Of a DNA stretch of 64,000 nucleotides, positions 42,078-44,129 are shown in pieces. Both the position numbers and the translations under genes were made by a program. The notes below the pieces were generated by a model, which was not told the origin of the DNA, ran no database searches, and worked only from the letters and a program-made list of their open reading frames with translations. Source of the stretch: Promethearchaeota archaeon. GTDB lineage: Archaea; Asgardarchaeota; Lokiarchaeia; Sigyniarchaeales; SOKP01. The stretch lies in contig JAUVNS010000011.1 in NCBI GenBank assembly GCA_030599585.1, positions 137,061 to 201,060 of the forward strand, read 5' to 3'. Position 1 is the first letter of the stretch. Each line of letters opens with the position of its first letter.

Positions 42078-42262
42078 ATCAATGATCTTACTATATCAAA
42101 AAGATATTTTATAATAACTTTACTTTTTAATGTTTATGATTGAATTTATTCTATGCAAAAGGGTTATAACACCGAACTTGAATGTCGATTATTGAAAAAT
42201 ATATAGTTTTTTAGAATTCATAGGTTATTTATCTAATATCCTCTCTACTTGAGTAAGAGCTT

Positions 42263-42325
42263 AAAAAAGAAAGAAAAATAAAGATGGGCTTATATGGGGC
42301 TCTAAATTAAAAAGCTCTTATAAGC
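42263..42325 (-). terminator. Hairpin plus U-rich tract after micropeptide copy 1
   Basis: GCTTATA...TATAAGC stem followed by TTTATTTTTCTTTCTTTTTT. Confidence 0.55.
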
Positions 42326-42334
42326 AGCACCAAA

Positions 42335-42364
42335 TTATGGATTAATTGTACCTTCCCCGGGCAC
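42335..42364 (-). CDS. Putative 9-aa micropeptide MPGEGTINP
   Basis: SD AAGGTGA, then GTG CCC GGG GAA GGT ACA ATT AAT CCA TAA. Confidence 0.6.
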   Translation of the reverse strand: MPGEGTINP

Positions 42365-42555
42365 TACACTCACCTTAAATATTAATTCGGTTAATTTTAT
42401 CATAAATCTAAATAAAAGATGGAATTTTTCCACTTTTCATTAACTTATTTTCTCTTTATTTATTTAAACTTCAATAATTATTGAAAAATGAATATATAAG
42501 GAAGTAGGCTATAGTTCTAATTTTAACATTATAAAGAACGGAAAAATTTTTAATT

Positions 42556-42617
42556 AAAAAAGAGAAAAATAAATAGTGGGCTTATAAAGAGCGTTAAAGT
42601 AAAGGACTCATATAAGC
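42556..42617 (-). terminator. Hairpin plus U-rich tract after micropeptide copy 2
   Basis: GCTTATA...TATAAGC stem followed by TTTATTTTTCTCTTTTTT. Confidence 0.55.
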
Positions 42618-42626
42618 AATACCAAA

Positions 42627-42656
42627 TTACGGATTAATATAACCTTCCCCTGGCAT
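42627..42656 (-). CDS. Putative 9-aa micropeptide MPGEGYINP
   Basis: SD AAGGTGAT, then ATG CCA GGG GAA GGT TAT ATT AAT CCG TAA. Confidence 0.6.
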   Translation of the reverse strand: MPGEGYINP

Positions 42657-42920
42657 TAGAATAATCACCTTAAATATTAATTCGGTTATTTTTTTTTTAA
42701 TTTAAATAAAAGATGGTGTTTTTTCATCTTTTCTTCAACTTATTTTCTCTTTAAATATTTAAACTTCAATACTAATTTTGAAATGAATACTTCATCTGGG
42801 CTTAGATTTATTTATTTTAATTTTAAAAGTAGTAGTATTTAAATTTGGATCCTTTGGTAGCTTCGTTGATTCTGATGCAAATCTCTACTGAAGTGCCGCA
42901 ATCAATTGTTAAAAATGCTC

Positions 42921-44129
42921 TTAAATTAAATCAGAGGGTAGAGTTGGGTTAACGAGCAAATTTTGAAACTCTTTAATAGAGGGTTTTTTACCATATTTTT
43001 GTCTTATGGCATTTGTACCAAGATGATATAAAAAAGCGTTTTTTGAATATGCCGGAGTAGATAACCTTTTTAACTCCATTTTTAGACCCGCCTCATTAAA
43101 AAGTTCAGCATTTTTACCATATTGAATCAGTTCTTCTTCGCTGTACTTATTGACTACCGCATGATATGCAAAATTATACCAAAAGAGTGTTGTTTTAGCT
43201 TTTAACTTATCTTGCATTACTATTTTTTCAAGGGATGCTTCTTTTGATGCATCTGTACAAAAATCTCTCAATAATATTTCTGCAGCTTCCTTGTTTGAAA
43301 AAAGCATGGAATTTGCTAAATTAGCAATTCCTTCGGAAATGATCATTTTGGGAGATTGAAGAATTAAGATAGAATGCTCAAATTGATTCAGTTCGCGATA
43401 TAATTTGTTTTCATTGATGACAAATTCTGTGTGGTGTCCAGGATATCCTTCATGACTAGCAGCAGACAGAAATGAGGTCCAATATATAGTATACTTCGAA
43501 TTAACTTCTATTCGGGAATGAAAATTACCTAAATACCAATTATAATAAGCCCATTTTATTTTGTCATTTAAGTTTTCTGGTAGATCTATAGATATATGTT
43601 CCTCTTCAGGTAGGAGATTAGGAAATAATTTATTAGTCTGTTTTCTTACAATATTAAGCGCTTTTTGAAACAACACAAATACTTTTTCCTCGGGGACTTT
43701 TCGTGATATTCTTAATTTATCTAAACGTTCTTCTAAACTTCCAGGACCGCCGTATGCTTCATCGTACTCGCTTTTTAAATTTTTCAGTTCTGATTCATTA
43801 GCTGGCTGTAAAGCTACATCATAAAGTTTTAAAAATTGATCTTTTATTGAAATTTCGATTCCATTTAATAATTCTATTGAAGTCCTCATTGCCGTGAGTA
43901 ATTTTTCTAGATATCTTTCACGTTTTATATCATAACCTTGTAAGTCTAGTTTATTTAATAGGTTGTCTGAGGTAATCAATAATTTGCTTGGCGAGGTTAT
44001 AGCTTCATTATCGACAATCTGGCGAAATTTTTCTGGACCGTAATAAAAATCGACATACCCCTTAATGTGTTTGTCAATTCTTAGAGCGAGTATTAGATAT
44101 TCTTCTCCAAACTCAGATATTCTTACCAT
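42921..44129 (-). CDS. DUF885-like zinc metallopeptidase
   Basis: HEGYPGHH motif and downstream SEGIA third-ligand motif. Confidence 0.75.
   Translation of the reverse strand: MVRISEFGEEYLILALRIDKHIKGYVDFYYGPEKFRQIVDNEAITSPSKLLITSDNLLNKLDLQGYDIKRERYLEKLLTAMRTSIELLNGIEISIKDQFLKLYDVALQPANESELKNLKSEYDEAYGGPGSLEERLDKLRISRKVPEEKVFVLFQKALNIVRKQTNKLFPNLLPEEEHISIDLPENLNDKIKWAYYNWYLGNFHSRIEVNSKYTIYWTSFLSAASHEGYPGHHTEFVINENKLYRELNQFEHSILILQSPKMIISEGIANLANSMLFSNKEAAEILLRDFCTDASKEASLEKIVMQDKLKAKTTLFWYNFAYHAVVNKYSEEELIQYGKNAELFNEAGLKMELKRLSTPAYSKNAFLYHLGTNAIRQKYGKKPSIKEFQNLLVNPTLPSDLI

Follow-up and report, generated by a model that had tools for sequence, protein, structure and literature searches.

Paired nine-codon micro-genes behind a DUF885-fold metallopeptidase gene in a Lokiarchaeial genome: candidate nonapeptide genes

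Results

Two units of common design in the gap behind a peptidase gene

We have analyzed a window of 64,000 nt from a Promethearchaeota archaeon of the class Lokiarchaeia (GenBank assembly GCA_030599585.1, contig JAUVNS010000011.1, positions 137,061 to 201,060), and coordinates given below are positions in this window unless a contig or locus is named. A gap of 840 nt separates the stop codon of a 402-aa open reading frame (ORF; 42921-44129, minus strand), predicted to encode a compact metallopeptidase of the DUF885 fold, from the end of a convergent short-chain dehydrogenase/reductase (SDR) gene (41274-42077). The gap is occupied by two units of the same design, both on the minus strand and each about 210 nt in length, and at the center of either unit lies a reading frame of only nine codons. 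These micro-genes are the subject of the present analysis.

In unit A, a putative promoter box GAAGTTTAAATA that resembles an archaeal TFB-recognition and TATA element (BRE/TATA; 42756-42767) is followed by a Shine-Dalgarno (SD) motif, AAGGTGA (42665-42671), complementary to the 3' end of the genome's own 16S rRNA, GGATCACCTCCT. Micro-gene A (42627-42656), which is also borne out by its homologues, reads ATG CCA GGG GAA GGT TAT ATT AAT CCG TAA and encodes MPGEGYINP. Two nucleotides past its stop codon begins an imperfect hairpin of 18 bp (GGT..GCTTATA / TATAAGC..ACT; 42574-42624), found as the minimum free energy (MFE) fold, and a T-rich tract (42556-42573) is the likely end of transcription. 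Unit B repeats this order with the promoter box GAAGTTTAAATA at 42461-42472, AAGGTGA at 42370-42376, and micro-gene B at 42335-42364, GTG CCC GGG GAA GGT ACA ATT AAT CCA TAA, encoding (V/M)PGEGTINP and likewise seen in homologues. Its MFE hairpin at 42283-42331, which the comparison of the units bears out as it does the promoter box, is followed by a T-rich tract at 42263-42282. The units share 81% identity over approximately 235 nt, with indels confined to the regions outside the ORF, and the two reading frames differ in the start codon (ATG/GTG), in CCA/CCC, in TAT/ACA (Tyr/Thr) and in CCG/CCA. An earlier reading of this stretch, made from the sequence alone (the sequence-only reading), had described two diverged minus-strand copies of a unit with a TATA-like box, leader, SD motif, nine-codon ORF, hairpin and U-tract. 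All these elements are in place in both copies, and every detail it had observed, including the start codons, the synonymous changes, the single variable residue and the indels in the flanks, was correct.

An E-value-based Rfam scan of positions 41500-45000 gave no match on the units and only five sub-threshold matches off them, four to C/D-box snoRNA models and one to a coronavirus frameshift-element model. Neither terminal inverted repeats nor target duplications were listed around the units in a repeat scan.

Recurrence of the micro-genes

The whole genome assembly to which the window belongs (4.85 Mb, 32.6% GC) was searched with a regular expression, start-CCN-GGN-(5 codons)-CCN-(optional AAR)-stop, and the reversed genome served as a control. 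Seven ORFs of the type MPG-x5-P(K) were found, and none in the control. Six of the seven occur in pairs behind three peptidase paralogues of at least 59% identity, one of which is the window locus; the paralogue at C3:33005-34210 is followed by MPGEDGIAP and MPGRDRFHP, the one at C3:47361-48572 by MPGRDNIQP and MPGQPGTFPK. The seventh ORF, encoding MPGEHGIAP on contig C40, is located upstream of a gene for a transporter of the major facilitator superfamily (MFS).

For the family as a whole, 135 genomes were searched with the pattern GTG-N5-11-ATGCCNGGN-N15-CCNTAA, which yielded 64 matches in 16 genomes, while the backwards-pattern control yielded none. Besides the window's genome, matches were obtained in 14 of 41 species of its genus and in 1 of 54 species of a second genus; eleven further genera of the family gave none. 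The highest copy number in a single genome was 14. A control pattern lengthened by 2 nt (18 N instead of 16) found no match in the window's genus, and the spacing is therefore strictly nine codons; over 400 genomes this longer pattern matched 3 times, as did its own backwards control. The units of the window are thus far beyond chance. In total, the micro-genes amount to more than 75 copies, with frame, length, start and stop of the ORF kept, an invariance that in many copies is partly imposed by the search pattern.

A coding signature

All 46 units that were fetched comprise nine codons ending in Pro, or ten ending in Pro-Lys in two cases, and the peptides follow the consensus M-P-G-[QEHR]-x-[GD]-x-x-P. 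Among the 44 units of nine codons, the codons for Pro2, Gly3 and Pro9 differ at their third position and are fixed at positions 1 and 2. Pro2 is encoded by CCT, CCA or CCC (and by CCG in one further set), Gly3 by four Gly codons and Pro9 by four Pro codons; note that the searches that started from the peptidase or the MFS transporter prescribed neither Pro9 nor the length. The peptide MPGQAGAVP is present in two species whose genes are separated by four differences, all of them synonymous. Within four peptide groups the ratio of non-synonymous to synonymous polymorphism (pN/pS), used here as a descriptive measure, ranged from 0.18 to 0.72, with 0.37 overall. The proposal of the sequence-only reading that the ORF differences reflect coding selection is supported by these observations, and its expectation of a recurrent SD motif plus MPGxxxxxP* ORF, in which the codons of the fixed Pro and Gly residues vary synonymously, was borne out in related genomes.

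An in-frame extension of the ORF in the upstream direction is ruled out by the distance from SD motif to start codon, which varies (GTG + 5 to 11 nt) in steps that are not multiples of 3, and by an in-frame TGA inside the SD motif of many units. As judged from these comparisons, the conserved object is the reading frame rather than an RNA fold or a leader.

Signals surrounding the reading frame

Between subfamilies, only the promoter box, the SD motif, the ends of the ORF and the 3' hairpin with its T-tract are conserved, and the leader differs both in sequence and in length (approximately 25 to 100 nt). At the putative promoter, the core G.AGTTTAAATA does not vary among 9 units that represent 7 genomes. 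An SD-like motif precedes 43 of the 46 units, compared with a crude estimate of about 11% for the starts of long ORFs, and a run of at least five T, the presumable site of termination, lies within 75 nt of the stop codon in 45 of 46. In 19 long-form units the stem of 18 pairs, counted on a manually registered structure, is 86% paired, with 9 pairs changed on both sides; none of 500 shuffles reached the observed pairing and slid controls were 33-54% paired, while RNAalifold by itself recovered 8 of the 18 pairs. The hairpin starts at a median of 2 nt past the stop codon. Five units, QPGTFPK and QSETYP among them, have no hairpin and retain both ORF and T-tract, and the hairpin is therefore a common but not an essential element.

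A segment of the leader, CCATCTTTTATTTAAAT (42699-42716 and 42404-42436), pairs as the 3' arm of a small hairpin within the leader (AAAAGATG/CATCTTTT) and is complementary in up to 15 of 16 positions to the peptidase coding region at 43823-43855. This complementarity is AT-rich and falls inside the range of 26 chance-level pairs from the repeat scan.

Linkage to the peptidase

With the peptidase protein as the only query, we searched 101 genomes of the same family and scanned the downstream regions for ORFs that begin with start-CCN-GGN and do not exceed 18 codons. Wherever the peptidase was at least 56% identical (17 of 17 loci), such an ORF lies 140-570 nt downstream and is preceded by GGTGA or GAGTGA. 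The scan prescribed neither the length nor the end, yet of the 21 ORFs that it yielded, 19 are exactly nine codons long and end in Pro, and the other two have ten codons and end in Pro-Lys. In the peptidase clade of about 40% identity, SD-preceded micro-ORFs were found downstream at none of 16 loci. Conversely, about 25 of 30 fetched ORFs that had been found by the pattern lie 100-400 nt behind a co-oriented peptidase homologue.

In a quick tree of 46 peptidases, the ORF-bearing enzymes form one clade (31 rows; Shimodaira-Hasegawa-like approximate likelihood ratio test, SH-aLRT, 95), each with one to three micro-ORFs downstream, and the sister clades have none. The peptide types track the peptidase subclades, as evidenced by QAGAVP/QAGAIP/QAGGIP, Q-x-D-A-x-P and E/Q-E-G-T-G-P. 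While the peptidase family is present in 79 of 400 genomes of the phylum, only 13 hold the clade of at least 54% identity, and micro-ORFs are present in all 13. The co-occurrence with the peptidase gene that the sequence-only reading had put forward as a check is thus near-perfect, per locus and per genome. Behind peptidases of 80-81% identity in other assemblies we found an orthologous MPGQGYINP, and independent JGI and NCBI assemblies contain the same units, with no gene annotated over them in the records examined.

Co-oriented with the peptidase gene and upstream of it (44244-48107) are genes for Trm5/Tyw2, DUF371, an archaeosine-type TGT and an AAA_18 kinase; the first three are probably tRNA-modification genes. 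The synteny of the block from TGT to Trm5/Tyw2 is kept in other species (locus L127); between it and the SDR gene, the peptidase gene with its units seems to be an insertion. At L127, where the flanking proteins are 82%, 82% and 73% identical and the peptidase 68%, the peptide reads EVGSVP in place of EGYINP. In another species, locus L077 (G084:C174) keeps the gene order of the window, from Trm5/Tyw2 on the upstream side to a convergent SDR gene on the downstream side, but the peptidase is absent, and the micro-ORF (around 1053-1082) is broken by an in-frame TGA (MPGQT*TNP). Homologues with a disrupted frame and a retained RNA structure had been named beforehand as what would speak against a coding function; this was the only broken frame seen, and it belongs to a locus without the peptidase.

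Three further arrangements were observed. The closest peptidase homologue among the GTDB genomes (80% identity; L054/L072, G060:C285:31678-32876) carries an in-frame TGA and TAA next to an intact micro-gene MPGQGYINP, and is either a recent pseudogene or an assembly error. At L063 (G100:C75; 1664-2692) an intact MPGQGYINP unit lies directly behind an ISL3-type transposase fragment, with no peptidase, and in front of an AAA_18 kinase gene, which suggests a rearrangement mediated by an insertion sequence. Finally, peptidase paralogues of 36-44% identity (L026, L027 and L028; C12, C52 and C23 in the window's genome) have no micro-gene, and just downstream of them is a conserved convergent small ORF whose opposite-strand start reads MKDTTWKSAVATATVLAVASF... 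and whose product looks like a single-pass membrane protein.

The neighboring peptidase

The motifs HEGYPGHHTE, F250-E251 and E266-G267 are invariant in 22 homologues of the 402-aa protein (37-85% identity). They include the HEGYPGHH sequence (residues 226-233) by which the sequence-only reading had recognized a co-oriented upstream metallopeptidase. The match to the Pfam family DUF885 (PF05960) was 18.6 bits (E 1.6e-3), below the gathering threshold of 32.4 bits, and a likewise weak match was obtained for 19 of the 22 homologues, with a best E-value of 2.4e-6. No match was found in NCBIfam. Against PDB chains the single sequence matched only once and at chance level (a T-cell receptor chain, E 0.12), while a profile search was without any match.

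The AlphaFold2 model, with a predicted local distance difference test (pLDDT) score of 92.7, had its best fold matches in DUF885 structures, namely 3iuk (Z 21.9, 360 residues aligned), 3u24 (Z 18.6) and 3o0y (Z 18.1), and a Foldseek comparison matched it to the DUF885 fold with an E-value of 3e-7. More distant matches were M32 carboxypeptidases (Z 13-15), M3 oligopeptidases such as neurolysin and PepF (Z 11-12), and ACE/ACE2 and MATCAP (Z about 10). As modelled, the peptidase shares its fold with the solved DUF885 proteins and is related to the M32, M3 and M2 enzymes. At 402 aa it is nevertheless smaller than these proteins, which have 500-600 aa, and where the clamshell oligopeptidases have HExxH it has HEGYPGHH. 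Assignment to the M32 carboxypeptidases of the Taq type was rejected, as a Pro takes the place of the second His of HExxH in this motif and no sequence match to Pfam or PDB was obtained, so that the similarity is one of fold only. Approximately 2,200 metagenomic members of the family, all labelled hypothetical, stem from metagenome-assembled genomes of Promethearchaeota or Lokiarchaeota (Ca. Lokiarchaeota archaeon), and the names of the close homologues agree with the Asgard archaeon that the sequence-only reading had proposed as host. Characterized relatives of the M32, M3 and ACE types have a deep cleft that admits only short, unfolded peptides, and ACE-type enzymes are inhibited by oligopeptides ending in Pro. 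We know of no DUF885 protein with a known substrate or a linked peptide gene.

A second context upstream of an MFS transporter

Micro-ORFs without an adjacent peptidase led us to a transporter of the MFS_1 family. In the window's genome this locus lies at C40:25391-27030 (L060, 889-2530; minus strand), with the MFS protein encoded at C40:25391-26767, and further loci are L096-L107. Eleven MFS orthologues (53-100% identity) have a start-CCN-GGN ORF 200-365 nt upstream on the same strand, and all of these ORFs are nine codons long and end in Pro, with neither length nor end imposed by the search. Each possesses an SD motif GAGGT and a T-tract, and most share a hairpin TTTCTCCCGC/GCGGGAAAA. The peptides are often rich in Cys or His, as in MPGQCGSVP and MPGCHDAVP; another is MPGTADATP. 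Within the genus, 10 genomes hold both the MFS and the peptidase clade, 3 only the one, 3 only the other and 26 neither, a descriptive count over related genomes. The micro-gene units occur in these two genomic contexts only, behind the peptidase or upstream of the MFS gene.

Discussion

On the comparative data the micro-genes are real, and the explanation that we consider the probable one is that the units are translated nonapeptide genes whose products are ligands or cargo of the neighboring peptidase and transporter. We favor it because the reading frame is conserved and is tied to two small-peptide-handling proteins, one that would cleave or bind a peptide and one that would transport it. 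That a small-peptide system is encoded here had already been proposed in the sequence-only reading, and is supported by the recurrence of the ORFs, their linkage to the peptidase, the lack of conservation in the leader and the lack of an Rfam match on the units.

In the proposed mechanism, an archaeal BRE/TATA promoter would drive one short mRNA per unit, with the RNA start approximately 25 nt past the TTTAAATA box. The strong SD motif would load ribosomes onto the nine-codon ORF, and hairpin and U-tract would terminate and probably also stabilize the transcript. The product would be a nonapeptide, probably PG-x5-P once the initial Met is removed, in which a Pro beside the N-terminus and another at the C-terminus would provide a shield against exopeptidases. 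This peptide would be the functional molecule and would act with the protein encoded next to its gene. It would fill the cleft of the zinc oligopeptidase, either as its dedicated substrate or as an inhibitor that is cleaved slowly; a C-terminal Pro is, by analogy, what ACE-type enzymes bind in their inhibitors, and the two Pro-Lys variants may likewise fit trimming by a carboxypeptidase that stops at Pro. Micro-genes are found upstream of the MFS gene in largely the same genomes, and therefore the peptides or a derivative are probably transported. Together, the parts would constitute a module for the production, transport and turnover of a peptide.

Several points weigh against this explanation. 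The peptide lacks a signal sequence, and the micro-gene is without a linked modifying enzyme. A single peptidase often has two quite different peptides behind it, such as EDGIAP and RDRFHP, and the pairing is therefore not one-to-one. The closeness of the hairpin to the stop codon would fit a ribosome-sensing RNA element equally well, and the most conserved residues, the initial Pro-Gly and the Pro before the stop codon, are also known to slow translation. Furthermore, the pN/pS values are descriptive and stem from groups picked by peptide type, the co-occurrence counts come from related genomes and are not phylogenetically independent, and the pattern by which many units were found itself imposes MPG, P9 and TAA.

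The main rival builds on the hairpin beside the stop codon and on the identity of the invariant residues, proposing a cis-acting, translation-coupled RNA switch in which the peptide itself would have no role. A ribosome that decodes M-P-G slowly and is also slow to terminate at Pro-stop would pause over the 5' arm of the hairpin. In this way it would govern termination, read-through or the stability of the RNA, comparable to what happens in leader-peptide attenuators or at the ribosome-controlled mccA terminator. The hairpin does show covariation besides its position at a median of 2 nt past the stop, the invariant residues are those that affect translation kinetics, and in the MFS context the order of ORF, hairpin, U-tract and gene resembles an attenuator; ribosome-dependent termination right behind the seven-codon mccA is documented (PMC4231749). 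We nevertheless regard an RNA switch as unlikely. Nothing co-oriented follows the units in the window, where the convergent SDR gene is next, or at most peptidase loci, and the units occur in tandem. The five units without a hairpin keep their ORF, residues 4-8 are kept within subclades through synonymous changes, and the variable leader offers no conserved alternative pairing for an antiterminator. Hairpins are not known to be needed for termination in archaea. The attenuators proper (trpL, hisL, tnaC and ermCL) share with the micro-genes a very short ORF followed by a hairpin and U-tract, and tnaC also its Pro-stop. However, they have a regulated gene downstream and an alternative pairing, neither of which is found for units in the peptidase context, and the mid-peptide residues of the micro-genes appear to be under purifying selection. 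An attenuator was thus rejected for the window, in which a second unit and then a convergent gene follow.

Less probable still is that a modified natural product is made from the nonapeptide as its precursor, similar to a ribosomally synthesized and post-translationally modified peptide (RiPP) or to microcin C, with unlinked modifying enzymes, export by the MFS transporter and a role of the peptidase in maturation or self-immunity. The closest described analogue of the micro-genes is mccA of microcin C from E. coli and its relatives. This seven-codon gene has a strong ribosome-binding site, is immediately followed by a terminator hairpin and gives rise to a short, abundant RNA whose accumulation depends on the ribosome (PMC4231749). 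In the MccA family the length is strictly conserved and the sequence variable (PMC6495379), as are the strict length and variable core between fixed ends observed here. Both are stand-alone, leaderless ORFs of final length with a hairpin directly after them. The microcin C system further includes an MFS pump, MccC, and a peptidase, MccF. The hairpin and the linked MFS transporter of the present loci are functional resemblances only. That transporter, the peptidase paralogues and the frequent Cys or His residues of the MFS-linked peptides would suit a modified product.

The differences are nevertheless considerable. The mccA gene has seven codons ending in Asn, as required by the chemistry of the ThiF/E1-like adenylyltransferase MccB, while the micro-genes have nine codons ending in Pro. 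No MccB-type gene is present among the Trm5/Tyw2, DUF371, TGT, AAA_18 kinase and SDR neighbors in the window, and the other loci have the same or unrelated genes; no modifying enzyme stands beside any examined locus. MccF is an S66 serine peptidase and not a metalloenzyme of the DUF885 fold, and the micro-gene, which belongs to an archaeal host, is located downstream of the enzyme gene and has a putative promoter of its own. Membership in the microcin C-like systems was rejected on the precursor and on MccB, even though the hairpin after the ORF and the linked MFS pump agree. Membership in a RiPP cluster was rejected among the neighbors at the examined loci, to which this analysis of modifying enzymes was confined, as there is also neither a leader nor a follower peptide for enzyme recognition.

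The translated-nonapeptide explanation also invites comparison with the RRNPP systems of Firmicutes (Rap/Phr, PlcR/PapR, Rgg/SHP), in which a peptide gene lies beside its partner gene, paralogues co-diversify with peptide types, and mature peptides of 5-10 residues are comparable to the nonapeptide. RRNPP pro-peptides, however, are of approximately 20-45 aa with export signals and have a TPR receptor as partner, whereas the window ORF already has the mature length without a signal sequence, and its partner is a peptidase fold with an intact HE..HH..E. Such a cassette was rejected, as the partner has no TPR match in Pfam and an ORF of nine codons is too short to include a signal sequence.

A small RNA acting in trans, or a mobile or repeat element such as a miniature inverted-repeat transposable element (MITE), with an incidental ORF, would account for a transcript of about 200 nt with a stable 3' hairpin, for the tandem duplication and for the leader segment complementary to the peptidase gene, but it is very improbable and largely refuted by the comparative data, as that complementarity is AT-rich and at chance level, Rfam gave no match in 41500-45000, the leader varies where more than 75 copies preserve the ORF in its frame, length, start and stop, and the variation follows codon third positions. 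A MITE in particular was rejected on the two genomic contexts and the lack of terminal inverted repeats or target duplications in the repeat scan.

A literature survey on DUF885 function, small ORFs of Asgard archaea and archaeal RiPPs found no description of such a system, in line with the sequence-only reading, which knew of none. If the peptides are made, their genes, at 30 nt including the stop codon, would rank with the smallest protein-coding genes known to be transcribed independently, and to our knowledge the first such family in archaea. The micro-genes were missed by every gene caller. Through them the DUF885 fold, whose function is not known, gains a candidate natural ligand, and one peptidase family and one transporter family are joined into a single testable system.

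The variable core between Pro-containing ends, the expansion of paralogues, the number of micro-genes, which reaches 14 in one genome, and the patchy distribution fit cell-cell signalling or antagonism. More tentatively, we can envisage a Lokiarchaeial nonapeptide repertoire with dedicated MFS export or import and cognate paralogous oligopeptidases that read or destroy the peptides, a possible 'pherotype' type of communication or kin discrimination. If true, it would be the first such system in archaea, and it would derive from the smallest stand-alone genes known there. The cell biology and intercellular interactions of the Lokiarchaeia are of wide interest for syntrophy and for the origin of eukaryotes, and with these candidate genes peptide-based communication in Asgard archaea becomes testable by means of synthetic peptides.

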